64,000 nucleotides of DNA from Candidatus Dormiibacterota bacterium (GCA_003162415.1 PMOL01000011.1:84701-148700); one strand, 5' to 3'. Counted from the first letter of the stretch, positions 24,485 through 47,936 are shown. Made by a program: numbers and translations. Notes: generated from the letters alone by a model not told the origin.

Positions 24485-25444
24485 ATGCTCACCTATCTAT
24501 CAGCCGCTGCCGTCCGAGATTGTCTACCCAGTGTCAGTACTCAGGTCGAGCTCGCGCAGACGGCACTTCGGGCTCTTGCGACGAACCAGGCGGAGATGCC
24601 ACCCAAGGTAGCTGTCCATCCCCGCGACAGCGCACTACTGGAGGCCATGCCGGCCTGGTGGCGCAACGGCGATGTCGCGGGGTTGAAGTGGATTTCAGCC
24701 TTCCCGAGTAATCGCATCCATCAGCAACCCCAGGTGATGGGGCTCATCGTCCTCAATGACGCGACCACCGGAGCGCCGGTCTGCATCCTCGATGCGGTGG
24801 AAATCACCCTCGCTCGTACCGCGGCCATCAGCGCGCTAGCCCTCCGCCTCTACCGAGACTCTCCCCACGCCGTGGCCATCCTCGGCGCCGGAGCCCAAGC
24901 TCGCGCGCACATTTCGATCGCCGTAGCACTTGGATTTGTGCACGACCTGCGCGTCTTCGACCGCCACAAGGAACGGGCGGACGAGCTCGTGAGTTGGTCG
25001 CAATCCCTCGCCCCATCCACGCTACCCGGCCGCGCGTGCGCCTCCGCTCAGGACGCGGTCGAGGGAGCGTCGGTCATCATCTCGTGCGCCTCACTCGGCA
25101 CCAAGCGACATCTCCTGCAATCAGAATGGGTCGACGCCGCTCGCCTCGTCCTCGCGATCGATGAGGATGTCTATGTCTCCGGCGATATCGTGCGTGCCAG
25201 CGACGCCTTCATCGTCGACGACATCAACCAGTTCCGCTCCGCACGCGACCAAGGCGATTTCGCTGGCTTCCCCGATCCAGATGGAATACTCGGCGGATAT
25301 CTGTCACCAGAGGTGTCGACAGTGGCTCCCGCCGGTCGCCTCGTCGTCATCACCCTTGGCGTCGGGATTGCGGACATCATCTTCGCCGCGGCCGTCTACC
25401 AAAGCGCGCGCGACGCCGGCATTGGCCTCCTCCTAGAACCCTGA
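24485..25444 (+). CDS. ornithine cyclodeaminase / mu-crystallin family protein
   Basis: OCD_Mu_crystall fold with a Rossmann-type AILGAGAQA motif. Confidence 0.8.
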   Translation: MLTYLSAAAVRDCLPSVSTQVELAQTALRALATNQAEMPPKVAVHPRDSALLEAMPAWWRNGDVAGLKWISAFPSNRIHQQPQVMGLIVLNDATTGAPVCILDAVEITLARTAAISALALRLYRDSPHAVAILGAGAQARAHISIAVALGFVHDLRVFDRHKERADELVSWSQSLAPSTLPGRACASAQDAVEGASVIISCASLGTKRHLLQSEWVDAARLVLAIDEDVYVSGDIVRASDAFIVDDINQFRSARDQGDFAGFPDPDGILGGYLSPEVSTVAPAGRLVVITLGVGIADIIFAAAVYQSARDAGIGLLLEP

Positions 25445-25448: not shown

Positions 25449-26432
25449 CTAACGCACCGTCCACGCGAAATGACATGCGGCCGCATGGCCGTCGACGACT
25501 TCAAGTGCCGGGTCCTCTTCCATACACAACGGCTGTGCAATCGGACAACGGGATCGAAACCGGCACCCTGACGGAATCGCGAACGGACTGGGCGGATCCC
25601 CCGCCACGCCCACCTCAGACGATTGCTCGCCGTGCACCAGACTCGGAATGGAACGCAGCAGCCCTTGCGTATAGGGATGCCGCGGGTCGTCAAAGAGTGC
25701 TCCAACCTCGGCCACCTCCACCACCCGACCGAGATACATGACCGCGACCCTGCCACACAGGTGGTGCACCACCGACAGGTCATGAGCGATGAACACCAGC
25801 GTGAGTCCGAGTTGCTGGCGCAGATCCGCAAGCAGATTGAGGATCGACGCCTGGACCGAGACGTCGAGCGCCGACACCGGCTCATCGGCAATCAGCAGTT
25901 CCGGCTCCAACGCCAGTGCGCGCGCGATGCTAACCCGTTGACGCTGACCTCCGGACAGCTGCCGTGGGTATGCGGATGCGAGTTCGGGCCCCAGACGAAC
26001 CAGATCCATCAGTTCGCGAAAGCGTGCCTCCCGACGCTGACGGGGCACGACGTTGTGCACGCCGAGGATCTCCTTGACCGTCTGCTCGACCGTCATGCGC
26101 GGGTTGAGCGACGCATAGGGATCCTGGAACACGATTTGGATGCGCCGGCGCAAGCTCGCGGGACGCCTCCGCGGCAGTACCTTTCCTGCGTACACAAGCG
26201 TCCCAGCCGTCGGTTCGTAGAGCCCTGCTATGCAACGTGCCAGCGTCGACTTGCCCGACCCCGACTCCCCCACGATGCCGAGAGCCTCGCCGGCGAACAC
26301 ATCCAGGTCGACGCCGTCGATCGCAACCAACGTCTCGTTGCGCCGCCGCACCAGGCGAGACAGCAAGGAAGTTGACGAAACGAACTCCATCTGCAGCCCA
26401 CTGATCCGCAGAAGCGGAACGGCCTGGTTCAT
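25449..26432 (-). CDS. ABC transporter ATP-binding protein (OppF-like)
   Basis: Walker [10 protein letters not shown], signature LSGGQRQR, Walker B LIADEPVS. The likely start at 26432 overlaps the upstream stop. Confidence 0.85.
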   Translation of the reverse strand: MNQAVPLLRISGLQMEFVSSTSLLSRLVRRRNETLVAIDGVDLDVFAGEALGIVGESGSGKSTLARCIAGLYEPTAGTLVYAGKVLPRRRPASLRRRIQIVFQDPYASLNPRMTVEQTVKEILGVHNVVPRQRREARFRELMDLVRLGPELASAYPRQLSGGQRQRVSIARALALEPELLIADEPVSALDVSVQASILNLLADLRQQLGLTLVFIAHDLSVVHHLCGRVAVMYLGRVVEVAEVGALFDDPRHPYTQGLLRSIPSLVHGEQSSEVGVAGDPPSPFAIPSGCRFRSRCPIAQPLCMEEDPALEVVDGHAAACHFAWTVR

Positions 26433-27430
26433 AACCCCGTCGACAGAAGCGGTGTTGTAGCCATCCGCTCCGAGTGAATGCACGCGGTCGCTCGATCGTC
26501 CGCGGTCGAAAGCAGAGGGAAATCCCCGTCAAGACAGTCCACTTGTGCGAGTGGACAGCGAGGATGGAAGCGACAACCCGACGGTGGGGAGTGCAGGTCA
26601 GGGGGCGTGCCCTGGATGGGTTCGAGTGCGCTGCCGATCCGGTGTACATCCGGCACCGACGCCAGCAGGCCACGGGTATAGGGGTGGCGTGGGCGGCTGA
26701 AGACCTCCGCCACCGGACCACGTTCGACCACCTGCCCTGCATACATGACTGCGACCGTAGGGCACGTCTGGGCGATCACCGCAAGGTCGTGCGTCACATA
26801 CAGCATCCCCAGCCCACTCTCGGCAGAAAGCCGCTTCAACAAGCGGAGGATTTGATCCTGGATGGTCACGTCGAGCGCAGTGGTCGGCTCGTCGCACAAC
26901 AAGAGATGCGGCCTGCACGAAAGGGCGATCGCGATGTCGATGCGTTGGCGCATGCCTCCGGAGAGTTGATGTGCATACGCGCGATACCGCCGCGCCGGGT
27001 CAGGGATGCCGATCTCCGTCAATAGTTTCATCGCTGTCCTGCGGCTCTCATCGGCGCTCTGGCCGAGGCGGTACCGCGGTCCCTCACTCACCTGGTCACC
27101 AACCGGCATGACGGGATTCAAAGCGGTCATCGGATCCTGAAAGACCATGCCGATGCGCTTTCCTCGAACCTCTCGCGCCTGCTTGGCAGAAACCGCCAGG
27201 AGATCGACCCCCTCAAAGATAATCTCGCCGTGCACCACGTGAGCACTCCGCGGCAGCAAGCCGAGCACGGCCCGCAACAACGTGGTCTTGCCTGACCCGG
27301 ATTCGCCCGCGATCCCCAGCGCCTCCCCCTCCAAGAGCGTGAGGCTCACATCGTCCACGGCGTGGACGACGCCACGCCGCGATCGAATGTGCACGGAGAG
27401 ACTCCGAATCTCGAGCATCGGTGCGCTCAT
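26429..27430 (-). CDS. ABC transporter ATP-binding protein (OppD-like)
   Basis: Walker [10 protein letters not shown], signature LSGGMRQR, Walker B. Confidence 0.85.
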
Positions 27431-28284
27431 TCGGGTCTCGCTGCGTCGGCTAGTCCATCACCAACCAGCGATAGACCCAAGCCCGTGATCACGACCGCAA
27501 TCCCCGGGATCGTGGGAAGCAGCCAGTTGGTTGTGATGAAAGTCTGTCCGTCGAAGATCATCGATCCCCAATCCGGAGTCGGCGGTGGAACCCCGAGCCC
27601 AAGGTATCCCAAGGTGACTACCCCGACGATGACCACGACGATATCCGACATCGCAAAGATGATCGCCTGTGTGATGACGTTCGGTAGGAGGTGGCGGAAC
27701 ATGATTCGCGCACTCGAGAACCCGGCGGCTCGAGCCGCCAGGATGTACTCCTCCCGCTTGGCGACGAGTACCCCGCCGCGAATAATGCGTGCATACGACA
27801 CCCATCCGACCGCGGCCACGGCCAGGAACACCCCCTGGATACCCGCACCGAGCACGAACACGAGCGCGATCACCAGGACGTAAAACGGGAACGCCTGGAC
27901 GATGTCGATGATGCCGTTAACAATCACATCGAGCGCTTTCCCGTAGTAACCCGCGACCAGCCCCACGGCGGTGCCAAAGATAAACGGTGTCACCACCGCG
28001 AGCACGCCGACAGCCAAATCAACCCGGCCGGCATAGAGCAGCCGGGTCCAGACGTCGCGGCCGTACTCGTCGGTACCGAGAAGATGCGCGGTCGATGGCC
28101 CCTGCAGGACCGCTGTGAGTTGCTGAGCGGTAGGATCATACGGGCTGATCAGCGGTGCCGCGATCGCCAGGAAGGCGATCACGAACAGGATCGAGCATCC
28201 AATCGTCAACGTGGGGCGCCGGTACCACGGACGCGAACGCCCGCGGCTCACTTCGCGCTCGACCGGAACGATTGCGACCGCCAT
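27427..28284 (-). CDS. ABC transporter permease (OppC-like)
   Basis: BPD_transp_1 permease. Confidence 0.85.
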   Translation of the reverse strand: MAVAIVPVEREVSRGRSRPWYRRPTLTIGCSILFVIAFLAIAAPLISPYDPTAQQLTAVLQGPSTAHLLGTDEYGRDVWTRLLYAGRVDLAVGVLAVVTPFIFGTAVGLVAGYYGKALDVIVNGIIDIVQAFPFYVLVIALVFVLGAGIQGVFLAVAAVGWVSYARIIRGGVLVAKREEYILAARAAGFSSARIMFRHLLPNVITQAIIFAMSDIVVVIVGVVTLGYLGLGVPPPTPDWGSMIFDGQTFITTNWLLPTIPGIAVVITGLGLSLVGDGLADAARPE

Positions 28285-29225
28285 CAGCCGAGCTTGACTC
28301 GCGGGTCGACCAGCGACCGCAAGATGTCAGTGGATGTGCTCACCACCACGACCAGGACTGCGAACACCAGTGCGATCGCCTGCACAACGGGAAAGTCACT
28401 GCTCAGGATTGAGTCGAGCATCAGTGCACCGATGCCGGGCAGTGCGAAGACCTTCTCGACCACCAGCGTGTTGCCGACCAGCCAGCCGATGTTCAGACCG
28501 AACACGGTGATCGCCGGAATGATCGCGTTCCGCAAGACGTGAGCCAGGATCACGCGCCGCTCCGCCAGACCCTTGGCCCGGGCGGTGGTGACGAAGTCAG
28601 CCTGGAGCACCTCCAGCATCGCCGCGCGAAGGCTGCGGACCGTGATCGGCGCGATCCCCAAAGCCACCGTCAGCGCCGGCAACACGATGGCGTGCAAGTG
28701 ACTCAAGAAGTCGGTCCCAAACCCTCCGACCGGGAACCATCCAGTGGACTCGGCGAGCACCAGCAGCAGGATGATTCCCACCCAGAACGCGGGCATCCCA
28801 AGCCCAACTAAGGGGATCAGACGGATCGCATGATCGATCCACGAGTTGGGCCGCATCGCGGCGGCCACCGCCAGCGGGAGGGTAATGACCACGGTAAGGA
28901 TCGAGGCACTGATCAGCAGCCAGAGTGTCGCGGCCAAGCGTGATGCCATCAGCGTGACGGCTGGTTCCTGATAGGTGAGCGAAGTCCCCAGATTACCGTG
29001 CAGCAGCCCGCCGAGAAAATTCACGAACTGCACCGGCAGCGGTAGATCCAGACCCCACGCCTTGTCCTGCGCGGCGACCACCTTCGCAGGTGCATGTGGA
29101 CCCAACAGCACGCGCGCCGGGTCACCCGGTATCAGGTGAATGAGCAGGAAGACAAGGATTGAGATCCCGAGCAAAATCGGAATCAGATGGAGCAGCCGCT
29201 TGCCAACGTACGAAAGGCGGTCCAT
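28284..29225 (-). CDS. ABC transporter permease (OppB-like)
   Basis: BPD_transp_1 permease. Confidence 0.85.
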   Translation of the reverse strand: MDRLSYVGKRLLHLIPILLGISILVFLLIHLIPGDPARVLLGPHAPAKVVAAQDKAWGLDLPLPVQFVNFLGGLLHGNLGTSLTYQEPAVTLMASRLAATLWLLISASILTVVITLPLAVAAAMRPNSWIDHAIRLIPLVGLGMPAFWVGIILLLVLAESTGWFPVGGFGTDFLSHLHAIVLPALTVALGIAPITVRSLRAAMLEVLQADFVTTARAKGLAERRVILAHVLRNAIIPAITVFGLNIGWLVGNTLVVEKVFALPGIGALMLDSILSSDFPVVQAIALVFAVLVVVVSTSTDILRSLVDPRVKLG

Positions 29226-29243
29226 CGCCGCGGGCAGTATGCG

Positions 29244-30833
29244 CTACTGGCTCAGCCAGACGTCTTGCAAGTGGTAGTTCCCCGTTGGATAGGCGAAGAA
29301 CCCATGGACGTTGTTCGAAAACGCGTACTGGTATGGCACGAACTGCAGCACCGCCCAGGGTGCGTCTTGAGCAACCTGGACCTGAATCTGTGTGTAGAGT
29401 GACGCCCGCTGCGACTCGACGAAAGCCTTCTCAGTTTGATGAACCCACTGCACCACCTGCGAGTCGTTGAACCCGGTGCTGTACGAATCAGCGCCGCCGC
29501 CCACCGGATCCAGCATGAACGAAGCCTGTTCGTCGGGGTCGGGGATGTCAGAAGCCCAGGCCTCGTACGCGAGTCCGTACTTCTCCTCCGCGAGTGTCGA
29601 GTAGAGCTGACCGGGATCAACTTTGTCCAGCGTCACATTGATGTTGATCGCCTTCAGTTCCTGCTGCACGATCGTGCCGACCGCCTCCTGATAGACATCA
29701 GTGCTCCCAATCAGCATGCTCGTGCTGAATCCGTTCGGGTACGCAGACATGGCGAGCTCCTGCTTCGCCATGCTCAGGTTGTATGTGAGACATGGGGTCT
29801 GCGGGTCGTAGTAGGAGAGCGTCGGTGCCATGTACGAGCAATTGGTCTTTCCATACCCGTACAACGCGGCCTTATTCATCGCCGCGTCATCGATCGCGTA
29901 CGCAATTGCGCGGCGCACGTGCACGTCCTTAAACTGCGCCATGTGCTCGTTCATGAGTACGTAGGACACCAGGTTGGACGGGAAGGTCTGCACCGTTATG
30001 CCGGAGCTTGCCTTTAGAGAATTCAACGTTGCGAACGGTGGGAACGAGTCGAGTTGGATCTGTCCGCCCTTCAACTGCAGAATCCGGGTGTTGTCGTCAG
30101 GAACGAACGTCCACGTCACGCTATTCAGGTACGGCTTGCCCGGTTGCCAGTAGTGCGGATTCCTGGTCATCTTTGTCGACACGCCCTTGTTCCAGAAGTC
30201 CAGAACGAAGGGTCCAGTGCCAACGGGGTCGTTGAAGAATGCTGCCGCAGTTTTCCCCTCAAAGTTGTTCGGGTAGATGCCGTTAGCCCACAACGCCAGG
30301 TCAGCAAGGAGCGGTTTCCACGGATACTTCGTCGTGATCACGACTGTCTCCGGATCCGGCGTGGTGATGTCTTTGATCGCCGAATCCAGGAAGCTGAAGC
30401 CGCCATTGAAGTTGCGGTTGCGATCGATCGAGAACTTGACGTCCGCAGAGGTCAAGGGCGTGCCGTCGGAGAACTGCACCCCGGCACGCAGGTGGAAGGT
30501 CCATGTCAACTGATCTGTCGACAGATCCCAGCTCGACGCGAGCCACGGTACCACCGACTGTCCGTTGGTCGACGTCTCCGTCAGCGTCTCAAAGATCATG
30601 TCGAGTGGATAGATCGTTTCGGTCTCCACCGCTTGCACTGGATCGAGGGTTTTGATGTCGATGGCGTGGGCGAAGACCAGATCGCCACCTCGCTGCGGCT
30701 TCGATGGCGTGGCTGTCGGGCTGGACGCCCCACTCCCGCAGGCCGCCAACACCACCATGAAGGCAAACGCGATCGCCGTCAGGGACCTGAATGGCAGGGC
30801 CCGGCCCCTCGTGCCACGGTTGAGCTGAGTCAT
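29244..30833 (-). CDS. ABC transporter substrate-binding protein, family 5, lipoprotein
   Basis: Signal peptide with the lipobox LAACGSG, then an SBP_bac_5 fold. It is the first gene of the minus-strand importer operon. Confidence 0.85.
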   Translation of the reverse strand: MTQLNRGTRGRALPFRSLTAIAFAFMVVLAACGSGASSPTATPSKPQRGGDLVFAHAIDIKTLDPVQAVETETIYPLDMIFETLTETSTNGQSVVPWLASSWDLSTDQLTWTFHLRAGVQFSDGTPLTSADVKFSIDRNRNFNGGFSFLDSAIKDITTPDPETVVITTKYPWKPLLADLALWANGIYPNNFEGKTAAAFFNDPVGTGPFVLDFWNKGVSTKMTRNPHYWQPGKPYLNSVTWTFVPDDNTRILQLKGGQIQLDSFPPFATLNSLKASSGITVQTFPSNLVSYVLMNEHMAQFKDVHVRRAIAYAIDDAAMNKAALYGYGKTNCSYMAPTLSYYDPQTPCLTYNLSMAKQELAMSAYPNGFSTSMLIGSTDVYQEAVGTIVQQELKAININVTLDKVDPGQLYSTLAEEKYGLAYEAWASDIPDPDEQASFMLDPVGGGADSYSTGFNDSQVVQWVHQTEKAFVESQRASLYTQIQVQVAQDAPWAVLQFVPYQYAFSNNVHGFFAYPTGNYHLQDVWLSQ

Positions 30834-31582
30834 AGATCGCTGCCCTCTTTCATCGCCGTCATAACGTCATTGGCGCCCTTGACGGCTCGGCCAAAATTCG
30901 CGTGGAAGGTACGAAGCGTCCCGGCATGTGCCTGTGCGTCGTACTCGGCCGTGCCGTCGTCGACGAGCACACATCCGTAGCCGCGATCCACCGCTTCCCG
31001 TGCGGTGCTCTCGACACAGCAACTCGTCGTGACGCCGACGACGACCAGCGTTTCGATGCCTAGCTCCTTGAGAACTGAGTCGATCTCGCTGCTGCTGAAG
31101 GCACCCGCGGAGCGCTTGACCACCACCGGCTCGTGCGCGCGAGGCGCCAGCTCGTGTCGAATCTGGAACCCTGGACTCCCGGACCACATGATCCCCTCCA
31201 CCCCAGACTCTCGCTCGAGATCCAAGATCATCGATCGCGAGCGCGTTGGGAAGTCCCGATAGTCGAGGTGATCCGAACCCAGTGTCAGGAAGACAACCGG
31301 GAGCTCACGACGGCGAAAGAAGTCAAGCAAGCGGACGATCGTGGGTACGACGGTCGTCTCGACTCGCTCGTTGTAGTAGTTGAGCGAGCCCGGTCGAGCG
31401 CGCTCAATCGCGACATTGAAGCCACCCGACGCTGATGCATCGTGGTATTGCATGTCGACGATCAGCAGCGCCGTTCGCCCGTCGCAACGCAACCGGATAT
31501 CCGACGCCAGCGTATACGTGTAGTCGTAGAAGGCGTTGCTGGGCTCTGCGGTGCTCACGGGTTCGCTTGCCGCGGCGTTCAT
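30830..31582 (-). CDS. isochorismatase-family cysteine hydrolase (maleamate amidohydrolase NicF-like)
   Basis: Isochorismatase fold (ALLIVDMQ..., catalytic-Cys region VGVTTSCCVESTAREA). It sits directly downstream of a NicX-like gene. Confidence 0.7.
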   Translation of the reverse strand: MNAAASEPVSTAEPSNAFYDYTYTLASDIRLRCDGRTALLIVDMQYHDASASGGFNVAIERARPGSLNYYNERVETTVVPTIVRLLDFFRRRELPVVFLTLGSDHLDYRDFPTRSRSMILDLERESGVEGIMWSGSPGFQIRHELAPRAHEPVVVKRSAGAFSSSEIDSVLKELGIETLVVVGVTTSCCVESTAREAVDRGYGCVLVDDGTAEYDAQAHAGTLRTFHANFGRAVKGANDVMTAMKEGSDL

Positions 31583-31593
31583 GATCCGACTGC

Positions 31594-32622
31594 CTACGCC
31601 GGCACCGCGGGTCGGTCGCTCTGTCGAAGCCCCGATTCAGAGGTGAATTCTCCGTTGTCGAGGATCCGGACACCATCGATTTCGAGTGTCGAACCGAAGA
31701 TGATGCCATCCATGTGGCCCTTGGAGGCATGGCTTCCCTTGAGTGTCGGCGTGTTGTTCGCTCCAAAGGCGACCAGAACGCCTCCCTCGACGCTCTCCCA
31801 GGCTGCCAGGTCGTAGTGGTTCGGATCGAACCGCGGATCGAAGCCAAAGCCGATGTGGGAGATGATGTAGGCGTTAGGATCGTCGAACTGCTTGATCCAG
31901 CGATCGAACTTGCGACCGTCCTCGGATGAGGTGTCGATACTGGTGATCGCACCCTTCTCGATGACCGTCTTCACTGGGTGCTGAATCACATAAAGATACT
32001 CGGGATCTCCGTAGAGGATCATCGGGCCGTTGTAATAGACGACGCCCTCGACGGTCTCCTCCATCGGCGCGCAATTGATCATGCACGTGCCGTAGAGATC
32101 GAAGTGTCCCGGCCTGGCCGCGTATCCCGACTGACCGTGCCACGGTCGGCTCTGCCGGTCCGCATACAACTCGGTCCCCAGCGAACTCGTGATCTTGATC
32201 TTGCCCTTGTCGGCAATCAGCTTCTCGGCGGCTCCAACCCGCCAGGTATAGCGGTCATCCGGAGGACGATCGATGATCGACCGTTCGGGAAGGAGCGCCA
32301 TGAGCACCCGAGTGCCGCTTCCAAGAACATCGAGCATCGCGGGGCTGTAGAGCCAGTCGTTCGACGAGAGTTCGAAAAGGATGTCGGCCTCCACGCACGC
32401 CTTGACGGCAGCTGGCGGCGGGCTCGTTTCCGGGAAGCGCGACATGCCCCGAACGACGATGACATCAGCGCCAGTTGTGACGACCGCGGCGTAGAAGGCC
32501 TCGACGATCGCGGGGTTCCGTTCCGAGTCGGTGTAGATGACGACCTTCTCGTCTGCCTTAACCTGGGAACCCTGCACTGCGTTCAGCGCTGCCCGGAAGA
32601 GTTCCGGAAATGCCACATCCAT
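31594..32622 (-). CDS. NicX-like (2,5-dihydroxypyridine 5,6-dioxygenase / M29-aminopeptidase-like) family protein
   Basis: Recalled NicX metal-ligand regions are conserved (ISHIGFGFDP; KGHMDGII). It is paralogous, at about 55-60% identity, to the ORF at 35578-36573. The start is taken at MDVAFPELF by alignment with that paralog. Confidence 0.6.
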   Translation of the reverse strand: MDVAFPELFRAALNAVQGSQVKADEKVVIYTDSERNPAIVEAFYAAVVTTGADVIVVRGMSRFPETSPPPAAVKACVEADILFELSSNDWLYSPAMLDVLGSGTRVLMALLPERSIIDRPPDDRYTWRVGAAEKLIADKGKIKITSSLGTELYADRQSRPWHGQSGYAARPGHFDLYGTCMINCAPMEETVEGVVYYNGPMILYGDPEYLYVIQHPVKTVIEKGAITSIDTSSEDGRKFDRWIKQFDDPNAYIISHIGFGFDPRFDPNHYDLAAWESVEGGVLVAFGANNTPTLKGSHASKGHMDGIIFGSTLEIDGVRILDNGEFTSESGLRQSDRPAVPA

Positions 32623-32801
32623 GGACCACCTCAAGGTGCCGCAGAACAACGCCGAAGGTCGGCGCTCCAACCTGGGCACCTTAGACCAATGTGGCATGAT
32701 TAGTCAACTTGTAGTGTAATGCGCCGGATTTCGGTTGAAAAGAAGGACTTGATGCCGAATTTCGCCAGTATTCGGAGCTCTCACCTTGAGGTGGACAGAC
32801 T

Positions 32802-33290
32802 GTGAAGGACCGGATAGACGACATCGATCGCGCGATCATCGGCTCACTCCAAGTCTCTGCACGGCGGAGCAACGTCGAAATCGCTGCGGATCTCGGTCTA
32901 AGCGAAAGCACCGTGCGACGCCGGGTGGAGAAGCTGATCGACGGCGACTATGTACGCATCGTCGCCGTCGCGGATCCATTAAAGATCGGCTATCCGGTCG
33001 TCGCTATCATCGGGCTCGAGTGCCCTCCCGCGGCGCTCGCTGACGTGGAGGCGGCACTCCTCCAGCTCGATGAGTTCCGCTTCATCGGGATGACCAGCGG
33101 TCCATACGATTTCGTCGCCGAGGCCTGGTTCAGTTCCCTGAGCGATCTCCAAAGCTTTATCACCCAGCGCCTTTCGGCAGTGGCCGGCATATCGCGAATC
33201 GAGACCACCCATGTCCTCAAGATGGTCCGCTACATGTACGACTGGGGACGGGTCAACGCGCCCTCTCTCGGCGGTCCCTCGGCAGCCTAG
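32802..33290 (+). CDS. Lrp/AsnC family transcriptional regulator
   Basis: HTH_AsnC N-terminus (IDRAIIGSLQVSARRSNVEIAADLGLSESTVRRRVEKL) plus a RAM domain. Confidence 0.85.
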   Translation: MKDRIDDIDRAIIGSLQVSARRSNVEIAADLGLSESTVRRRVEKLIDGDYVRIVAVADPLKIGYPVVAIIGLECPPAALADVEAALLQLDEFRFIGMTSGPYDFVAEAWFSSLSDLQSFITQRLSAVAGISRIETTHVLKMVRYMYDWGRVNAPSLGGPSAA

Positions 33291-33314
33291 CGCGGTGCTG
33301 ATTGTGGTCTCGCG

Positions 33315-34160
33315 GTGAGCAGTACGGGAATCGCCGCTGGCGTTGCGCTCAGTGTTCTCTCCGCGGCGTCGCTTGGAAGTGCCGACTTCGCCGGTGGACT
33401 GGCAGCCCGCACTCGAAGTGCCCTCGCCGTCGTCGCTGTCATGCAGGCGATCGAATTCGTTGGAGTCTTGGTGCTCATTCTCATAATCGCGCCCCCTCAT
33501 CCGTCGACGACCACGGTTGTGTGCGGTCTCTTCGCAGGTGCCGCCGTCGCCCTCGGGCTCACCGCCCTCTATCGCGGGCTGGCGATGGGCTCTATGGCGG
33601 TCGTTGCCGCGCTCAGCACGGTCGGATCGGTCGCCATCCCGTTTGCGTTTTCAGCGGTTGTTCTCGGCACCTTCCCGCACACCGTGCAACTGATTGGTGT
33701 GGTCATCGCTCTCGCGGCCTCGGTGATGATGGCTGGACTGTCCGGGCGTGTCGTATCACGCACCGCCTTGCTCTACGGTCTGATCGCTGCGGTCAGCTTT
33801 GGCACCTATTTCATCCTGCTCAGCCGCGGAGCCTCCAGCGGTCTCTGGGTGCTTTTGACCAGCCGCGGCGCCGCCGTGGTTTTGCTCGTCGCCGTCGGCG
33901 GCGCGACCCGGCTCATACGCGTCGATCGCGGGCTCCTGCCTCTTGCGGTGACGGCCGGCCTTCTTGAACTGCTAGGGAGTGGCCTGGTGATCGCCGCCCT
34001 CCGTTACCTACCCCTTGGGCTCATCGTCCCCATAACAGGCACATACCCGGTGGCCACAGCACTCCTGGCGTGGGCCTTCTTAGGCGAGCGGCTCCGCCTC
34101 TTCGCCTATTTAAGCGTTGCGCTGGCTTTGGTTGGAATCGTATTGATCGGACAGGGTTGA
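33315..34160 (+). CDS. DMT/EamA family transporter
   Basis: Polytopic EamA-like membrane protein. Paralog of the ORF at 1868-2722. Confidence 0.7.
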   Translation: MSSTGIAAGVALSVLSAASLGSADFAGGLAARTRSALAVVAVMQAIEFVGVLVLILIIAPPHPSTTTVVCGLFAGAAVALGLTALYRGLAMGSMAVVAALSTVGSVAIPFAFSAVVLGTFPHTVQLIGVVIALAASVMMAGLSGRVVSRTALLYGLIAAVSFGTYFILLSRGASSGLWVLLTSRGAAVVLLVAVGGATRLIRVDRGLLPLAVTAGLLELLGSGLVIAALRYLPLGLIVPITGTYPVATALLAWAFLGERLRLFAYLSVALALVGIVLIGQG

Positions 34161-34174
34161 ACGGAGGCTTGCGA

Positions 34175-35581
34175 ATGACCAACGAGCTCGCCAAGCTGGA
34201 GCGCCGCGCCATGAACTATCTAGACGAACATCGTGCAGAGCTCATGTCTGAGTATTTCGACCTCGTGAGGATCCCTTCGGTCAGCGCCGATCCAGAGCAC
34301 GCCGCTGACGTAGCGCGTTGTGCCGAGCTGATCGCTGCTCGCTTGCAACGTATAGGTCTGGACGACGTTCGTGTTGATCCAACTGAGGGCCACCCCGTGG
34401 TGTCGGCCCGCACCCCACTGATTTCTGGTGCGCCGACCTATCTCGTATATGCCCACTACGACGTCCAGCCTGCGGATCCCCTCGAGGAGTGGAACACGCC
34501 ACCGTTCACCCCGACCCAAGTCGGCGACGAACTTCGTGGCCGCGGCATCTCTGACGACAAGGCGCATGTGCACCTGCACCTAGCGGCTATCGAAGCACTC
34601 CTTGTCGCCTCCAGACTGGGGGTCAACATCCGCGTCATTTTCGAAGGCGAGGAGGAGATCTCCAGCCGCCACCTGGAGACCTGGCTTCGAACCCAATCCG
34701 ACCTCGGGTCGCTGGCTGGCTGCATCGTCTCCGACACGACCTTCCTCACCTCGGACGTGCCATCGCTCGGTACCGGGGTCCGCGGCCTGCTCTACACCCA
34801 GATCGATGTGGAGACCGCGGCGCATGACCTCCATTCCGGAGGCTATGGCGGCGCGGTACCCAATGCTGCCGAAGCGTTGGCGACCATTCTCGCGCAGCTC
34901 AAGCGTGCCGACGGTCAGGTCGCCATCCCCGATTTCTATGCGGACGTGATCGATGATCGAGCCTTTCGTGACCTCATCCCAACCCTCCCCTTTGATGAAG
35001 CTGAGTGGCTGCGCGGCGCAGCGCCGAGCCAGGGGCAAGCCACTGGCGAGACCAACTTCTCGCTGCTCGAGCGGCTCTGGTTGCGCCCGACATTGGACAT
35101 CAATGGGATGTGGTCCGGTCATACCGGAGAGGGCCCGAAGACCGTCATCCCCGCTCGGGCACATGCGCGCGTCTCCTGTCGGTTGGTCGCGGACCAACAC
35201 CCCGAGCGTGTCTTCGCTGGACTCTCGCGCCTGGTCGCCGAATGCGCACCTCCATGGGCGAAGGTCACGGTGACCCTGGTGAGCGCGTCGCTCCCGGCAC
35301 GGGCGGATACCACAGGGCCGCTTGCCGAGGCCGCGTTGGCGGCGTTGGCGCACGGCTTTGGCCGCGAGCCGATCCTCCAACGTGAAGGCGGGTCGATTCC
35401 GGTGGTCGGAATCCTGACCTCATATCTTCCGGGTACGCCGCTGATTCTGCTTGGCTTCAGTCCTCCCGACGACGCAGCGCATGCGCCTAACGAGTGCATG
35501 CGCATGTGGAATCTCGACGGCGGCCTACGCACTCTCGTTCGAATGTGGCTCGTGCTCAGTCTCGAGGAGAAGAACCGATGA
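34175..35581 (+). CDS. M20 family metallopeptidase (dipeptidase / acyl-amino-acid deacylase-like)
   Basis: M20 catalytic and dimerisation domains (YAHYDVQP, GRGISDDKAH). The start is MTNELAKL at 34175. Confidence 0.8.
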   Translation: MTNELAKLERRAMNYLDEHRAELMSEYFDLVRIPSVSADPEHAADVARCAELIAARLQRIGLDDVRVDPTEGHPVVSARTPLISGAPTYLVYAHYDVQPADPLEEWNTPPFTPTQVGDELRGRGISDDKAHVHLHLAAIEALLVASRLGVNIRVIFEGEEEISSRHLETWLRTQSDLGSLAGCIVSDTTFLTSDVPSLGTGVRGLLYTQIDVETAAHDLHSGGYGGAVPNAAEALATILAQLKRADGQVAIPDFYADVIDDRAFRDLIPTLPFDEAEWLRGAAPSQGQATGETNFSLLERLWLRPTLDINGMWSGHTGEGPKTVIPARAHARVSCRLVADQHPERVFAGLSRLVAECAPPWAKVTVTLVSASLPARADTTGPLAEAALAALAHGFGREPILQREGGSIPVVGILTSYLPGTPLILLGFSPPDDAAHAPNECMRMWNLDGGLRTLVRMWLVLSLEEKNR

Positions 35582-36573
35582 CGCACTTCCCTGAATTGCT
35601 TCGCGCTGCAAACCTGACGCTCGACCAGTGCAATGTGCAACCGCACGAACAGCTTGTGATCTATACCGACTCGGAGCGCGAAGTGGCCGTCGTGGAAGCC
35701 TTCTATGCGGCCGCTGTCGCCCACGGCACTGATCCAGTGATCGTTCGAGCGCTCTCTCGGCCCGCGGAGGGAGGTCCACCCGCCGCTGCCGTCGCCGCCT
35801 GCAAGCAGGCTGATCTCCTTCTCGATCTGGCTTCCAATACCTGGTCATACAACCCCGCCATGCGCGAGATCCTCGAAGGCGGCACCCGCATCCTGCAGTG
35901 CCTACTCCCCACCCAGTCGCTCATCACCCGGCTGCCAGACGCTCGACGCAGTGCTCGCCTCGATCGCGCAATGGACCTGATTCGAGGCGGCGGCAGTATT
36001 CACATCACCGACGCCCTCGGCACAGATCTGCATGGGGAGCGTGGCAATCGGCGATGGCACCCGCAGGCGGGTGTGGTTACACAGAGCGGACAGTACGACC
36101 TCTACGGAACCTGCATGGTCAACTGTGCGCCGATCGAAGAGAGTGTCAACGGGGTCGTCTATCTCGATGGTCCGATGATCATGTACGGCAATCCCGAATA
36201 CCTCTTCGTGCTCTCACAGCCGGTCAAGATCGTCGTCAAAGAGGGCCGGTTGACCGACATCGACACCCGGCCAGAGGATGGCCGGAAAATCAAGCGGTGG
36301 GCGGAACAGTTCGACGATCCCAACGTGTATCTCATCTCCCACTTGGGCTTCGGCTTGCACCCCCAATACGACCTCAACAACTTTGATCTCGCCGCCTGGG
36401 AGAGCATAGAGGGCGGGGTCCTTGTCGCCTTCGGCGCCAACGATTCGACGGCGCTAGGCGGAAGCCACTCTGCCAAAGGTCACGTCGACGCCATCCTGTT
36501 GCACGCAACCTTCGAAGTCGACAGGATCCCCCTTATCGTGGAGGGTCGGCCGGCTCCGAGTCTCGGCTCCTGA
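35578..36573 (+). CDS. NicX-like (2,5-dihydroxypyridine dioxygenase / M29-like) family protein, second paralog
   Basis: Motifs ISHLGFGLHP and KGHVDAILL. It overlaps the M20 stop (ATGA), which suggests translational coupling. Confidence 0.6.
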   Translation: MTHFPELLRAANLTLDQCNVQPHEQLVIYTDSEREVAVVEAFYAAAVAHGTDPVIVRALSRPAEGGPPAAAVAACKQADLLLDLASNTWSYNPAMREILEGGTRILQCLLPTQSLITRLPDARRSARLDRAMDLIRGGGSIHITDALGTDLHGERGNRRWHPQAGVVTQSGQYDLYGTCMVNCAPIEESVNGVVYLDGPMIMYGNPEYLFVLSQPVKIVVKEGRLTDIDTRPEDGRKIKRWAEQFDDPNVYLISHLGFGLHPQYDLNNFDLAAWESIEGGVLVAFGANDSTALGGSHSAKGHVDAILLHATFEVDRIPLIVEGRPAPSLGS

Positions 36574-37753
36574 CGATCTTGCCCTCGAGCATGACCAGCC
36601 GCACATCTCGGAGCGAATCGAGGCCATCGAGTGGATCGCCGCCGACCGCGATGAGGTCCGCGGACTTGCCCGATTCGAGTGTGCCGTAGCTGTCGGCGAG
36701 CGGACCGATGACGCGTGCCGCGTCACGCGTCGCTGCTTGGATAGCTCGATAGCGTGGCATCCCAAACGACACGAACTGCTCGATCTCGGCCACTACCTCT
36801 CCGAAGCCATCGGTTCCAGTGCCAAAGTTGACTCCAGCGTCGAGCGCGTGCTGGAATGAAGCTCGATGAGGTCCGAGGATCCCCTCGGCGATCGGGATCC
36901 ATGAGCTGGGCATCCCCCACTCAATGCCCCGCTCGAAGATGCCAACCATGGTCGAGAGTGTCGGTACGAGGTCGACGTTGTGTTCCGCCATCCAGACCGC
37001 CTGCGCGTGTGTGAGGAAGATTCCGTGCTCGATGCAGTCGACACCGGCCTCGAGCGCATTGCCGATGCCACGTTCACCATCTGCATGGGCGGTCACCCGT
37101 TTCCCCGCCGCATGCGCCACGGCGACGACCGCGCTCATCTCCTCGACAGTGAGTTGCGGCTGCGATGGTTCCTCACCTTCGCGTGTGATCCCCACACCGC
37201 CACTGGCCATAACCTTGAATAGATCGACGCCTGCTTTGAGTTGTCGCCGCGCGGCCTTGGTCGCCTCCGCGGCCCCATCGACCTCGTAGCCGTGTATGTG
37301 GCCATGGCCGCCAGTCATCACTATCGGTTGCCCCGCACAGACCAGACGGGGGCCTTCGACATAGCCTTCGGCGATTGCTCGCCGGAGTTGGAGATCGACG
37401 TGCGACGGTCCGCACCCGACGATCCGCGCCGTCGTGATTCCCTCATCGAGCAGGCGGCGACCGTGAAACGTCGCCACGAACGCGAACATCACGTCGGGCT
37501 CGCTGACCGAGGCGTCGCCGATCGCAAACCTATCGTGGCCATTGAGGTGTTCGTGGCAGTCGATGAACCCTGGGAGAATCGTGGCGGTCCCAAGGTCCAG
37601 CCGCGTCTCATCGTCTGAGCGCTCAAGCTCCGCAGCAGTACCCACGGCAGCGATGCGACCATCGACGACGCGCACCGCCCCGCCATGAATCGGGGAGGCG
37701 TCATTGCCGATCAAGACCTGTTGCGCGGTTATCAGGAATCGTCCCACGAGCAA
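36533..37753 (-). CDS. amidohydrolase family metal-dependent hydrolase
   Basis: Amidohydro_1 fold with the HxH motif (FIDCHEHL) and downstream His and Asp ligands. Its 3' end overlaps the convergent gene by 41 nt. Confidence 0.8.
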   Translation of the reverse strand: MLVGRFLITAQQVLIGNDASPIHGGAVRVVDGRIAAVGTAAELERSDDETRLDLGTATILPGFIDCHEHLNGHDRFAIGDASVSEPDVMFAFVATFHGRRLLDEGITTARIVGCGPSHVDLQLRRAIAEGYVEGPRLVCAGQPIVMTGGHGHIHGYEVDGAAEATKAARRQLKAGVDLFKVMASGGVGITREGEEPSQPQLTVEEMSAVVAVAHAAGKRVTAHADGERGIGNALEAGVDCIEHGIFLTHAQAVWMAEHNVDLVPTLSTMVGIFERGIEWGMPSSWIPIAEGILGPHRASFQHALDAGVNFGTGTDGFGEVVAEIEQFVSFGMPRYRAIQAATRDAARVIGPLADSYGTLESGKSADLIAVGGDPLDGLDSLRDVRLVMLEGKIVRSRDSEPADPPR

Positions 37754-39238: not shown

Positions 39239-41659
39239 ATGGCCAAGCGAGATCTCAGCGAATCAGACATCTGCGCCAAGTTCATCACCCCCGCCCTGAT
39301 CGGCGCCGGCTGGGATGAACTCACACAGCTACGGAGGGAGATCTCCTTTACCAAGGGCCAGATCAAAGTGCGCGGCAAAATGGTGACCCGCGGAGAAGGG
39401 AAGCGCGCGGACTACATCCTCTACTTCAAACCCAACATGCCACTCGCGGTCATCGAGGCCAAGGACAACAAGCACTCCGTCGGGGACGGCATGCAACAGG
39501 CACTCGATTACGCCGAGTTCCTGCAGGTTCCCTTCGTCTTCTCATCCAACGGCGACGGCTTCGTCTTCCACGACTCGACCGGGCTCGGCGATGAGCTAGA
39601 GGCAACCTTGCCGATCGACAAGTTCCCATCCCCCCAGATGCTGTGGGCCCGCTACTGCCAGTGGAAGGGAATCACCCCCGAGGCGGAGCCGCTCGTCCTT
39701 CAGGACTACTTCGACGACGCGAGCGGTCGCTACCCGCACTACTACCAGATGAATGCGGTCAACGCCGCTGTCGAGGCGGTCGCAAAGGGTCGGGACCGCC
39801 TCCTCCTGGTCATGGCCACCGGAACCGGCAAGACGTACACCGCATTCCAGATTATCTGGCGGCTCTGGAAGGCCGGCCACAAGAAGCGGATTCTCTACCT
39901 CGCCGACCGCAATTTGCTCATCGACCAGACCATGGTCAACGACTTCCGCCCCTTCGGCGGGGTGATGGCCAAGCTGAGCACCCGGAACAAAACGATCGGC
40001 CCCGATGAGGGCCCCGAATTGAACATCAACCTTGCGATCGACAAGCACCGCCGCATAGACACTGCCTTCGAGGTTTACATGAGCCTCTACCAGGCGATCA
40101 CCGGGCCCGAGGAACGGCAGAAGCTCTTCAAAGAGTTCTCGCCAGTCTTTTTCGATCTGATCGTGATCGATGAGTGTCATCGCGGTAGTGCCGACGAGGA
40201 ATCTGCGTGGCGGGAAATCCTCGACTACTTCTCCAGCGCCACACAGATCGGCATGACCGCGACCCCCAAGGAGACCGAGTTCGTCTCCAACATCCACTAC
40301 TTCGGCGATCCCATCTACACATACTCACTGAAGCAAGGCATCCTCGACGGCTTTCTCGCGCCGTTCAAGGTCATCCGGTCTCACATCGATCTGGATGTCG
40401 GAGGCTATCGGCCGGAGCCGGGGAAGCGGGACATCGAGGGACAAGAGATCGAAGATCGCGTCTACAACCCGCGCGACTTCGAGCGGACTCTGGTAATCGA
40501 CGATCGCACCAAGTTGGTGGCTGAGCGAATCAGCGAGTTCTTACGGGAGAGCGGCGACCGCTTCCAGAAAAGCATCATCTTCTGCGTCGATCAGGAGCAC
40601 GCCGCGCGCATGCGGCAGGCGCTGATCAATGCCAACAAAGACCTGGCGACCAACCCCCGCTACGTGATGCGTATCACGGGTGGTGCCCCGGAGGGTCAGG
40701 CTCAACTTGGCAACTTCACGGATCCGGAGAGCATTTACCCGGTACTCGTGACGACGTCTCGGCTCCTGTCCACCGGTATCGATGTGCAGACCTGCAAGTT
40801 GATCGTCATCGACAAGCAGATCGAATCCATGGGCGAGTTCAAGCAGATCATCGGCCGAGGCACACGGGTTCGTGAGGATGCCCACAAGTTCTACTTCACC
40901 ATCCTGGATTTCCGCGGCGCCTCGAATCACTTCGCCGACCCGGACTTCGACGGACCCCCAATCGAGATCTACGTACCTCCGAGCGGTGGACCGATGGTTC
41001 CACCCGACGACACCGAACCACCCGAGCCCGAGCCGGGCGAGATCATCGTGTCTGAACCCCCGCCGTATTACTCAGCGGAGAAGGGCGTGGGCGGACGACC
41101 GAAGATCTACATCAACGGCGTTCCTGCACAGATCATTCACGAGACCATTCAGTACGTCGACCACGACGGCAAGCTGATCACCGAAACACTCCGCGACTAC
41201 TCGAAGCGAACCATAACGGAGCACTTCGTGAGCCTTAGTTCTTTCCTCCAGCGTTGGAGCTCGTCAGAGCGTAAACAGGCGATCGTCGAAGAGCTGTCTG
41301 CTGAATGCATCCCGCTCGAGATCCTCGCAGATGAGGTTGGCAAGGACCTCGATCCCTTCGACTTGGTCTGCTACGTGGCCTTCGGTCAACCCCCGTTGAC
41401 CCGCAAGGAGCGTGCAGACAATGTACGTAAGCGGGATGTCTTCGCCAAGTACGGGTCACAGGCGAGAGCCGTTCTTGAGGCGCTCTTGCGTAAGTACCAA
41501 GATGACGGCATTGTGGATCTCAGTGATGTACGCATTCTGCAGATCCCCCCGCTGGATCAGATGGGCACGCTTGTGCAGTTGATCAAGGGCTTCGGCTCTC
41601 GCGATCAGTTCGAGCATGCCGTCCACGAGATGCAGGCTGCGCTCTATGAGGCCGCCTGA
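39239..41659 (+). CDS. hsdR: Type I restriction enzyme R subunit (endonuclease/helicase)
   Basis: N-terminal PD-(D/E)xK nuclease (ADYILYF...VIEAKD). SF2 helicase motifs I (MATGTGKTYTA) and II (DECHRG). Confidence 0.9.
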   Translation: MAKRDLSESDICAKFITPALIGAGWDELTQLRREISFTKGQIKVRGKMVTRGEGKRADYILYFKPNMPLAVIEAKDNKHSVGDGMQQALDYAEFLQVPFVFSSNGDGFVFHDSTGLGDELEATLPIDKFPSPQMLWARYCQWKGITPEAEPLVLQDYFDDASGRYPHYYQMNAVNAAVEAVAKGRDRLLLVMATGTGKTYTAFQIIWRLWKAGHKKRILYLADRNLLIDQTMVNDFRPFGGVMAKLSTRNKTIGPDEGPELNINLAIDKHRRIDTAFEVYMSLYQAITGPEERQKLFKEFSPVFFDLIVIDECHRGSADEESAWREILDYFSSATQIGMTATPKETEFVSNIHYFGDPIYTYSLKQGILDGFLAPFKVIRSHIDLDVGGYRPEPGKRDIEGQEIEDRVYNPRDFERTLVIDDRTKLVAERISEFLRESGDRFQKSIIFCVDQEHAARMRQALINANKDLATNPRYVMRITGGAPEGQAQLGNFTDPESIYPVLVTTSRLLSTGIDVQTCKLIVIDKQIESMGEFKQIIGRGTRVREDAHKFYFTILDFRGASNHFADPDFDGPPIEIYVPPSGGPMVPPDDTEPPEPEPGEIIVSEPPPYYSAEKGVGGRPKIYINGVPAQIIHETIQYVDHDGKLITETLRDYSKRTITEHFVSLSSFLQRWSSSERKQAIVEELSAECIPLEILADEVGKDLDPFDLVCYVAFGQPPLTRKERADNVRKRDVFAKYGSQARAVLEALLRKYQDDGIVDLSDVRILQIPPLDQMGTLVQLIKGFGSRDQFEHAVHEMQAALYEAA

Positions 41660-41661
41660 TC

Positions 41662-43116
41662 GTGGCTGTTCGCAACACCGTCAAGTCGATCCAGGACATC
41701 ATGCGTCAGGATGCCGGCGTCGACGGCGATGCCCAGCGCATCTCCCAGCTCTGCTGGATGTTTTTTCTGAAGATCCTCGACGACCAGGATCAGCAGCTCG
41801 AGATCCTCGATCCTGCCTACACGTCACCGGTCCCGCCGGAACTTCGCTGGGGCGCATGGGCTGCCAACGCTGAAGGGCTCACCGGCGAGGGGCTTCTCAA
41901 GTTCATCAACGAGGATCTCTTCCCCGGCCTCAAGGGGCTTGAACTGGCTGGAGCCCAAGCCCACCGCAAGCGCGTCGTCCAAGCCGTCTTCGAGGACGCG
42001 TACAACTACATGAAGTCCGGTCAGCTGGTTCGCCAGGTGATCAACAAGATCAACGAGGTCGACTTCAACGACCTCGCAGAACGCCAGCACTTCGGCGACG
42101 TCTACGAGCAGATCCTCAACGATCTCCAGAGCGCCGGCAACGCCGGCGAGTACTACACGCCACGAGCTGTGACGGCTTTCATGGCCGAAAGGGTCGACCC
42201 CAAGCCGGGCGAGATTCTGCTCGACCCGGCGTGTGGCACCGGCGGCTTCCTCACCTGTGCGATCCGCCACATGCGTGAGAACTACGTCAAGCGCCCCGAG
42301 GACGAGGCGCTTATCCAGGGTTCACTGCGGGCCGTCGAGAAGAAGCCCCTTCCCCACATGCTCTGCACAACGAACATGCTGCTCCATGGCATAGAGGATC
42401 CAAGTTTCGTCCGCCACGACAACACCCTAGCTCGCCCCTACGTCAGCTACGGCGCTGATGACCGCGTCGACATCGTGCTCACCAACCCACCCTTCGGTGG
42501 CAAGGAAGAGCCTGGCATCGAATCCAACTTCCCCGCCCATCTTCAGACCCGTGAGACAGCAGACCTGTTCCTCGCACTCATCATGCGTCTCCTCAAGAAA
42601 GACGGACGCGCTGCGGTTGTTTTGCCTGATGGCTCCCTCTTCGGGGAGGGGGTCAAAACGCGTCTAAAGGAAGCACTACTGACTGAGTGCAACCTGCATA
42701 CCATCGTTCGCCTTCCCAACAGTGTTTTCCGTCCCTACGCGAGCATCGGCACCAACCTGCTCTTCTTCGAGAAGGGCGAGCCGACGACTGACATCTGGTT
42801 CTACGAGCATCGTGTGACCGACGGGCAGAAAGCGTACTCGATGACTAGGCCGATCCGGCTCGACCATCTTCAGCCTTGTGTGGACTGGTGGGGCGGAGCA
42901 AGCCGCGAGGGCAGAATCGAGACCGAAGTCACTTGGAAGGTCACGGCTGAAGCGATCAAGGACCGTGGATACAACCTCGATATTAAGAATCCGCATGTGC
43001 TGGCTCGCAGCCACGGCAATCCCGAAGAGTTACTGTCCCAGCTCAATGCGGCAGAAGCCACCGTAGCACTGATTCGCACCAAGCTCAAAGAACAGTTGGA
43101 AGAGGCGTTGCGTTAG
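41662..43116 (+). CDS. hsdM: Type I restriction-modification system M subunit (N6-adenine DNA methyltransferase)
   Basis: HsdM_N region, AdoMet motif I (DPACGTGGFL) and catalytic NPPFGG. Confidence 0.9.
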   Translation: MAVRNTVKSIQDIMRQDAGVDGDAQRISQLCWMFFLKILDDQDQQLEILDPAYTSPVPPELRWGAWAANAEGLTGEGLLKFINEDLFPGLKGLELAGAQAHRKRVVQAVFEDAYNYMKSGQLVRQVINKINEVDFNDLAERQHFGDVYEQILNDLQSAGNAGEYYTPRAVTAFMAERVDPKPGEILLDPACGTGGFLTCAIRHMRENYVKRPEDEALIQGSLRAVEKKPLPHMLCTTNMLLHGIEDPSFVRHDNTLARPYVSYGADDRVDIVLTNPPFGGKEEPGIESNFPAHLQTRETADLFLALIMRLLKKDGRAAVVLPDGSLFGEGVKTRLKEALLTECNLHTIVRLPNSVFRPYASIGTNLLFFEKGEPTTDIWFYEHRVTDGQKAYSMTRPIRLDHLQPCVDWWGGASREGRIETEVTWKVTAEAIKDRGYNLDIKNPHVLARSHGNPEELLSQLNAAEATVALIRTKLKEQLEEALR

Positions 43117-45965: not shown

Positions 45966-46050
45966 CGGCTCATACGGTAATTCCGGGCAGCCCCGCCCGG
46001 CAACAGCGAACGCCGATTCGCGGGACCGACCCCGTTCCTCGGGCCGCCAG

Positions 46051-47918: not shown

Positions 47919-47936
47919 CCGGCTGTCGCCGAAGCG

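Follow-up and report, generated by a model that had tools for sequence, protein, structure and literature searches.

Do two genes related to nicX, whose product is the 2,5-dihydroxypyridine (DHP) 5,6-dioxygenase of nicotinate catabolism, mark a pathway for the cleavage of an N-heterocyclic ring, or do they serve a different chemistry? We addressed this question for a stretch of 64,000 nucleotides, read on one strand, from Candidatus Dormiibacterota bacterium (GCA_003162415.1 PMOL01000011.1:84701-148700), which we refer to as the window. It contains two NicX-family genes, paralog A (31594..32622, minus strand) and paralog B (35578..36573, plus strand), and an earlier note on this DNA had proposed that they belong to a variant N-heterocycle ring-cleavage pathway or, as a fallback, that they have an M29-like peptidase role. 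We found that both proteins are NicX-family members with a substituted active site, and that they are encoded together with a peptide-type importer and several putative peptide or amide hydrolases. The paralogs are very probably not isofunctional with NicX, nor is the locus a nicotinate-type pathway. Instead, we favor, with a modest degree of confidence, the reading that 25449-37753 is an uptake-and-hydrolysis locus whose target is a small compound of peptide-like or amide character; the step contributed by the NicX-family proteins would be metal-dependent and probably non-oxidative.

The relationship of the paralogs to NicX is real and far beyond chance. In a single-sequence search, the sole PDB match of each paralog was NicX (7cn3, E about 1e-17), and a profile made from 22 sequences of the paralogs' subfamily matched NicX at E 2e-54. 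A precomputed assignment places the paralogs in the Pfam family PF26233 "NicX," and the AlphaFold2 model of paralog A (predicted local distance difference test score 94) aligned to 7cn3 in Foldseek with a template modeling (TM) score of 0.85. The NicX fold that had been proposed for both proteins was thus borne out. The paralogs are 55% identical to each other (E 3e-134), 24% identical to NicX/Hpo of P. putida KT2440 (7cn3/7cnt/7cup), and similar to it in size (about 340 amino acids); no NCBIfam model matched either A or B.

To compare the active sites, we relied on published work on NicX, in which H265, S302, H318, and D320 are the Fe(II) ligands, R293 forms a salt bridge to D320 and lies 4.3 Å from the substrate ring, and H105, E177, and H189 form the DHP-binding network that defines DHP specificity (PMC7910607). 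The NicX mutants H265A, S302A, H318A, D320A, and R293A lose both iron and activity (PMC7910607), while the mutants H105F and H105M remain active, so that position 105 alone is not decisive. In the paralogs, the motifs ISH[IL]GFG and KGH[MV]D align with NicX H265 and H318/D320, which correspond to H256, H303, and D305 in paralog A and to the equivalent residues in paralog B; NicX D188 and E201 are conserved as well. The fourth Fe(II) ligand, S302, is replaced by Ala (A285 in paralog A) and R293 by Glu (E276 in paralog A) in both proteins, and the DHP-binding residues H105/E177/H189 are replaced in both by Tyr/Gln/Leu. The earlier observation that the His and Asp ligands of NicX appear conserved therefore holds; the fourth ligand, S302, is not kept, and R293 has been exchanged as well. 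No gaps interrupt the alignment of the strand that carries position 302 or of the WES-x-x-G segment that carries position 293, both of which lie between conserved glycines, and the residue assignments agreed across MAFFT auto, L-INS-i, and HMMER profile alignments. Unlike NicX, the paralogs do not have an insertion of roughly 10 residues ahead of R293.

Within the window subfamily (22 sequences), H256, E276, H303, and D305 are invariant. Judging by the alignments, Glu276, which takes the position of NicX R293 beside Asp305, would most simply be an extra metal ligand, giving a predicted metal site of His-Glu-His-Asp in place of the His-Ser-His-Asp plus Arg of NicX; the metal-site geometry used here comes from the alignments together with the NicX paper (PMC7910607). 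We also considered that the paralogs might be pseudo-enzymes and rejected this reading, given the invariance of the H/E/H/D set and of several Gly/Pro positions.

To see how widely this pattern occurs, we searched 1.84 billion representatives exhaustively with HMMER, with clusters at 50% identity. This yielded 960 NicX-family clusters at E <= 0.001, 34 of them at E <= 1e-30, and we aligned 151 full-length members with NicX. Of the 151 family sequences, 107 had Glu, 24 had Arg, and 12 had His at position 293; at position 302, Ala or Gly was present in 133, compared with Ser in 14. The combination of E293 with A/G302 occurred in 102/151 sequences. A neighbor-joining (NJ) tree, computed without support values, placed the R293+S302 sequences, most of which also have H189, in one small clade that includes the PDB NicX and P0020, a protein that matches 7cn3 at E 4e-95 and is located in a textbook nic cluster (L004). 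The window paralogs fell in a separate and distant clade with the pattern Y-Q-D-[L/S]-P-H-E-A-H-D; a family phylogeny, one of the checks suggested in the earlier note, thus sets them apart from true NicX.

The gene next to paralog A bears on the same question. An isochorismatase-family cysteine hydrolase of the amide/ureido hydrolase type (30830..31582, minus strand; Pfam Isochorismatase, E 3e-34) starts 11 nucleotides past the paralog A stop, in agreement with its earlier description as directly downstream of the first paralog, and it had been likened to NicF, the maleamate amidohydrolase that pairs with NicX. This likeness was not supported. The best NCBIfam match of the isochorismatase was BiuH (95 bits against a cutoff of 370), and its PDB matches were led by the "cysteine hydrolase" 6xix/6xj4 and the biuret hydrolase 6xjm/6azo at 63-79 bits, compared with 35 bits for 3ot4/3uao, which we take to be Bordetella NicF. 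Its identity to the L004 NicF is 28%. The fold and the Asp, Lys, and Cys triad positions are common to the window protein, the biuret/triuret hydrolase-type cysteine hydrolases, and NicF, with the triad aligning to both 6xix and the L004 NicF; NicF, unlike the window isochorismatase, pairs with a true NicX and with NicD.

Apart from a NicX-family gene that adjoins an isochorismatase-family hydrolase, the locus has little in common with canonical nic/pic/ndp clusters (NicAB, NicC, NicX, NicD, NicF, NicE). Among the open reading frames (ORFs) scanned in the 64 kb, we found no aromatic or N-heterocycle hydroxylase and specifically no FAD_binding_3-type or molybdenum hydroxylase, no alpha/beta-hydrolase deformylase, and no Asp/Glu-racemase-type maleate isomerase, so the absence of the hydroxylase and of the deformylase NicD reported earlier extends over the scanned ORFs of the window. 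The canonical clusters L004 and L037 and a plasmid match (H40, ndpE/ndpF) have the flavin adenine dinucleotide (FAD)-dependent monooxygenase, the deformylase, and the isomerase, and L037 additionally has a molybdenum hydroxylase. In place of these, the window has a Dpp-type ATP-binding cassette (ABC) importer and genes for M20, Amidohydro_1, Lrp, and EamA proteins.

The importer had been overlooked in the earlier note. It is a full Dpp/Opp-type set of five genes (25449-30833), which overlap or abut, in one minus-strand operon that also includes paralog A. Directly after the isochorismatase gene, with which it shares an ATGA stop-start overlap, comes a family-5 solute-binding protein (SBP) of the peptide/opine/nickel type (29244..30833; Pfam SBP_bac_5, E 9e-91), followed by a DppB/OppB-like permease (28284..29225; BPD_transp_1 and BPD_transp_1_N), a DppC/OppC-like permease (27427..28284; BPD_transp_1 and OppC_N), a DppD/OppD-like ATPase (26429..27418; ABC_tran and oligo_HPY, with the gene call taken from the identical contig L002), and, last in the operon, a DppF/OppF-like ATPase (25449..26483; ABC_tran and oligo_HPY). 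The best NCBIfam matches of the SBP were GsiB and NikA, both under cutoff, and its best PDB match was AapF (7kz8, 223 bits), followed by YliB/GsiB, AgaA, DppA, and NikA. Importers of the Dpp/Opp-type family also carry opines, nickel complexes, and other small molecules.

On the other side of a divergent intergenic region (32623..32801), a plus-strand operon begins with an Lrp/AsnC-family transcription regulator (32802..33290; Pfam HTH_AsnC-type and AsnC_trans_reg) and an EamA/DMT (drug/metabolite transporter)-family membrane protein (33315..34160; Pfam EamA). It continues with a CNDP2/DUG1-like M20A dipeptidase (34175..35581; Pfam Peptidase_M20 and M20_dimer), which has GGAGG 7 nucleotides ahead of its ATG at 34175, and paralog B, recognized by its homology to NicX and to paralog A. 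The TGA stop of the M20 gene and the ATG start of paralog B form an ATGA at 35578-35581, as expected from the translational coupling that had been described for this pair. Convergent to paralog B, with their 3' ends overlapping by 41 nucleotides, lies an Amidohydro_1 enzyme of the Xaa-Pro dipeptidase/Arg-carboxypeptidase/ochratoxinase clade (36533..37753, minus strand; Pfam Amidohydro_1, E 4e-45). The seven genes listed in the earlier note (both NicX-like genes and the isochorismatase, Lrp, DMT, M20, and amidohydrolase genes) were all found in place by our ORF map and domain scans. Because of the overlap between the isochorismatase and SBP genes and the presence of the importer in the paralog A operon, we treat 25449-37753 as one functional unit, which reaches about 5.4 kb past the left border drawn previously.

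By sequence similarity, all partner enzymes resemble peptide or amide hydrolases. The M20 protein scored 434 bits against a cutoff of 441 for the NCBIfam "dipeptidase" PRK08201, and its top PDB matches were CNDP2 (2zof), Sso-CP2, carnosinase, and DUG1, a Cys-Gly dipeptidase. The amidohydrolase scored 265 bits against a cutoff of 500 for the NCBIfam Caulobacter Xaa-Pro dipeptidase, and it matched, over its full length and at E 1e-40 to 1e-48, the Xaa-Pro dipeptidase 2qs8, the arginine carboxypeptidase Cc2672 (3mtw), 8ihq, 3be7, and ochratoxin-degrading amidohydrolases. Enzymes of this carboxypeptidase-type clade act on dipeptides or N-acyl amino acids, from which they remove the C-terminal residue. 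The window enzyme differs from these carboxypeptidases and prolidases in falling under the NCBIfam equivalog cutoff and in being tightly coupled to a NicX-family gene, a coupling for which we found no description in the searched literature.

To determine which of these genes stay together in other organisms, we performed a neighborhood scan with one genome per GTDB species and mapped all window proteins by homology, which gave 19 close loci and one distant archaeal locus. In 18 metagenome-assembled genomes (MAGs), most of them from Acidimicrobiia, one from Miltoncostaeaceae, and several from unclassified bacteria, and also in the metagenome loci L001 and L032, we found one invariant operon in the order SBP5-permease-permease-ATPase-ATPase-Amidohydro_1-NicX-like, each product being 48-66% identical to its window counterpart. 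In about 20 MAG loci, the gene directly upstream of the NicX-like one encodes an ortholog of the amidohydrolase (59-66% identity), and orthologs of the DppF/OppF-like ATPase, at 56-66% identity, occupy the same operon slot in L001 and L006-L024. A second, window-like architecture consists of a NicX-like A gene, the isochorismatase gene, and the ABC importer, divergent from Lrp-EamA-M20 with or without a NicX-like B gene. L005 has the architecture of the window on a contig that stops just past B; L006, from a Propionibacteriales MAG, has a paralog A that is 87% identical and the window genes including the amidohydrolase, with paralog B absent; and L030, L035, and L036 show the architecture in part. 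The Lrp gene is in the same position in L005, L006, and L036. Comparison of the two architectures identifies importer, amidohydrolase, and NicX-family protein as the conserved core, and isochorismatase, M20, Lrp, EamA, and paralog B as lineage-specific additions. Acidimicrobiia MAGs and soil actinobacterial lineages both retain the three-part module.

More distant family members divide along the same line. Those of the E293 type have as neighbors Dpp-type ABC genes, GntR, and M20 (L003); an M24 peptidase, a pyridoxal phosphate-dependent enzyme, and an aminotransferase (L026); Dpp ABC genes, four M19 dipeptidases, and AsnC (L027); Dpp ABC genes and MmgE/PrpD (L025, from the archaeon Halobellus); or an OPT oligopeptide transporter (L038, on a Streptomyces plasmid). 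Members of the S302/H189 type (L004, L028, L037, L039) lie beside oxygenases (hydroxylases, Rieske) and nic pathway genes (deformylase, maleate isomerase); in L004, for example, P0020 is found beside NicF, NicD, NicC, and a maleate isomerase. A tblastn search on plasmids gave only matches below 30% identity, mostly to true nic clusters.

Homology, the residue substitutions, the operon structure, and the conserved neighborhoods are shown directly by the data; what the NicX-family proteins catalyze, what kind of substrate is used, and how the locus is regulated are inferred. The Dpp/Opp-type importer would bring in a small peptide-like or amide compound, whose amide or ureido bonds may be cleaved by the carboxypeptidase-type amidohydrolase, the M20A dipeptidase, and the biuret/triuret-hydrolase-type cysteine amidase. 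The paralogs would be metalloenzymes of an uncharacterized sub-type that act on a substrate other than DHP, and the step they perform may be non-oxidative and metal-dependent, such as the hydrolysis of an unusual amide. The Lrp/AsnC regulator would control both divergent operons, probably through an amino-acid-like effector.

Several points weigh against this reading. The Fe(II)-binding 2-His-1-Asp triad is intact in both paralogs, and Glu276 could serve as the fourth Fe(II) ligand in place of Ser302. Dioxygenases are the only characterized relatives within reach of the paralogs, considering that the subfamily profile matches NicX far better than it matches the M29 enzyme PepS (E 1e-4), and neither Hpo nor NicX showed aminopeptidase activity on Leu-p-nitroanilide (PMC3831237). 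The adjacency of a NicX-like gene and an isochorismatase gene recurs in L005, L006, and L030, as well as in L002, which is the window's own genome, and it formally parallels the NicX-NicF pair. The proposed catalytic Glu253 and Tyr355 of M29 enzymes have no counterpart in the paralogs, and gene neighborhood is no proof of chemistry.

Some of these points are equally arguments for the cleavage of an N-heterocycle or another ring, which we regard as unlikely, though as the chief rival. Under this explanation, A and B would be dioxygenases that use Fe(II) and O2 to cleave the ring of a hydroxylated heterocycle different from DHP. This substrate would arrive in hydroxylated form, or the amidohydrolase or M20 enzyme would free it from an imported conjugate, and the isochorismatase would act like NicF on the amide product. 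It gains from NicX being the closest solved structure and sole characterized relative, from the invariance of H265, H318, and D320, from Glu276 as a conceivable substitute ligand, and from the NicX-like/isochorismatase adjacency in the four loci just named, which is the arrangement of true nic clusters and makes the isochorismatase-adjoining sub-lineage of the window type resemble NicX/Hpo loci. On the other hand, both S302 and R293, without either of which NicX does not bind iron, are replaced, the DHP-binding triad is gone, and the paralogs stand outside the NicX clade. Hydroxylase, deformylase, and maleate isomerase are missing from the scanned ORFs, and the isochorismatase is closer to structures of the biuret/triuret hydrolase type than it is to the NicF-type entry. 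Finally, the most widely conserved partners are the peptide-type importer and the carboxypeptidase-type amidohydrolase, while the isochorismatase is absent from about 20 loci. The substitutions, the tree, and the peptide-type partners together speak against the ring-cleavage pathway put forward in the earlier note.

The fallback proposal, a peptidase role of the M29 kind, comes nearer to our reading in that it fits the context of peptide uptake and peptidases, but membership of the paralogs in M29 does not stand. In its specific form, A and B would be ordinary co-catalytic aminopeptidases (AmpS/AmpT/PepS-like) that trim the N-termini of imported oligopeptides, which we consider very unlikely. 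There is a distant homologous fold: Foldseek aligned the paralog A model to PepS, AmpS, and AmpT at E about 1e-14, and some source annotations read "leucyl aminopeptidase (aminopeptidase T)." However, the TM scores were 0.55-0.64, lower than that to NicX, the weak Pfam M29 matches (PF02073) of 11.7 and 18.3 bits lie below the cutoff of 27, and the paralogs are about 70 residues shorter than M29 enzymes. M29 enzymes have in common the residue set E-E-H-Y-H-D (PMC7023490), and 2/6 of these residues, the final His and Asp, are identical in the paralogs. Profile alignment to PepS placed H381/D383 onto H303/D305 and E253 onto Met181, and a mapping by spacing and family alignments placed E319 onto H256, H348 onto E276, and Y355 roughly onto A285 of paralog A. 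The paralogs thus share with AmpS (1zjc), AmpT (2ayi), and PepS (4icq) the H381/D383 pair and a peptide-related context, as well as, unlike NicX, a metal-capable residue at the position mapped to H348, so that by our own mapping the putative ligand Glu276 may be compared with His348 of the M29 site; they differ in having Met for Glu253 and no equivalent of Tyr355 that we could find. With several defining residues of NicX and of M29 replaced, the paralogs are by these residues neither NicX-type nor M29-type. That the seven genes are mere neighbors, unrelated catabolic genes beside a mobile/defense island with no common pathway, is most improbable: the locus does border a type I restriction-modification (RM)/TIR/integrase region and the window does hold another Dpp-type cluster and assorted amino-acid catabolic genes, but the isochorismatase/SBP and M20/paralog B pairs are joined by ATGA overlaps, the whole architecture recurs at 48-87% protein identity in L005, L006, L030, and L036, and about 20 MAGs share the ABC-amidohydrolase-NicX-like core.

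Returning to the uptake-and-hydrolysis reading, what is known here is the fold and the family, and what is new is the active-site pattern together with a distinct conserved genomic module. We tentatively suggest, at somewhat less than even confidence, that the majority form, His-Glu-[Ala/Gly]-His-Asp, is a functionally new enzyme class, perhaps a (di)metal amidase/peptidase or another metal-dependent enzyme, which acts in tandem with the amidohydrolase on an imported peptide-like metabolite. If so, ring cleavage of the NicX type would be a late specialization of the PF26233 family. We found no characterized E293-type (non-DHP) member in the searched literature. Most of the sampled family combines the different active-site pattern with a peptide context, which defines a testable, uncharacterized enzyme subfamily and a three-part module. 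Source annotations of paralog-type proteins include "2,5-dihydroxypyridine 5,6-dioxygenase" and "hypothetical protein" in addition to the aminopeptidase label, and the dioxygenase label would lead metabolic reconstructions based on MAGs to a false prediction of pyridine or nicotinate degradation. Our result corrects what is likely an annotation error and overturns nothing in current understanding. Identification of the substrate would add a route of nutrient acquisition for uncultured Acidimicrobiia and would show how a ring-cleaving dioxygenase arose from, or alongside, a metallohydrolase scaffold.

With regard to the history of the two genes, A and B appear to be old paralogs, because the NJ tree places B outside the branch that unites A-type with Acidimicrobiia-type sequences. 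A recent tandem duplication was considered and rejected on this branching and on L006, which has A and no B. The closest relative among the genomes, L006 (1192-6509), has no paralog B between its M20 gene and its amidohydrolase gene, which abut; paralog B is dispensable, or was lost, in this lineage.

The divergent intergenic region between paralog A and the Lrp gene, a candidate promoter/operator region, contains repeated motifs. An identical 13-nucleotide sequence, CACCTTGAGGTGG, which contains the Shine-Dalgarno-like GAGGTGG, precedes both start codons, 4 nucleotides ahead of the paralog A ATG (minus strand, 32626-32638) and 8 nucleotides ahead of the Lrp GTG (32782-32794). These are its only two matches in the whole 64 kb, and two matches were reached in 0/100 shuffles; the corresponding regions of L005, L006, and L036 do not contain the sequence. 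Inspection by eye further revealed CGCCGAAnnTCGGCG-like palindromes and a ATGCCGAAnnnCGTTGAC box common to the divergent NicX-like/Lrp regions of four lineages (window 32640-32770; L005 5097-5246; L006 5367-5468; L036 2077-2110), which are candidate Lrp operator and promoter elements. Scans for sigma-70 promoters and terminators gave no excess over shuffled expectation.

To the left of the locus, the window holds a second catabolic block (4815-25444). It includes a GntR regulator with another Dpp-type ABC importer (5725-11224), an MmgE/PrpD gene (12727-14427), a DAO-type flavoenzyme (14103-15230), an AstE/AspA-like deacylase (15579-16742) that adjoins an M24 creatinase/prolidase-like enzyme (16760-17941), a thiamine pyrophosphate enzyme, a PxpABC 5-oxoprolinase (20157-22667), and an ornithine cyclodeaminase-like gene (24485-25444). 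The pair of deacylase and M24 enzyme (15579-17941) is reminiscent of ectoine DoeB/DoeA. The MmgE/PrpD gene of the window lies 17 kb from the NicX-family locus; in two very distant family members, an MmgE/PrpD-family gene adjoins the NicX-family gene, divergently in the Halobellus locus L025 (8414-10924) and immediately upstream on the same strand in the metagenome contig L027 (6565-8954). Directly downstream of the locus lies a defense/mobile island (39239-53523) with type I RM genes (hsdR/hsdM/hsdS), SRA-HNH, TIR-domain genes, a phage capsid-family fragment, and two tyrosine integrases. The guanine-cytosine content climbs from about 0.60 to about 0.66 past 48 kb.

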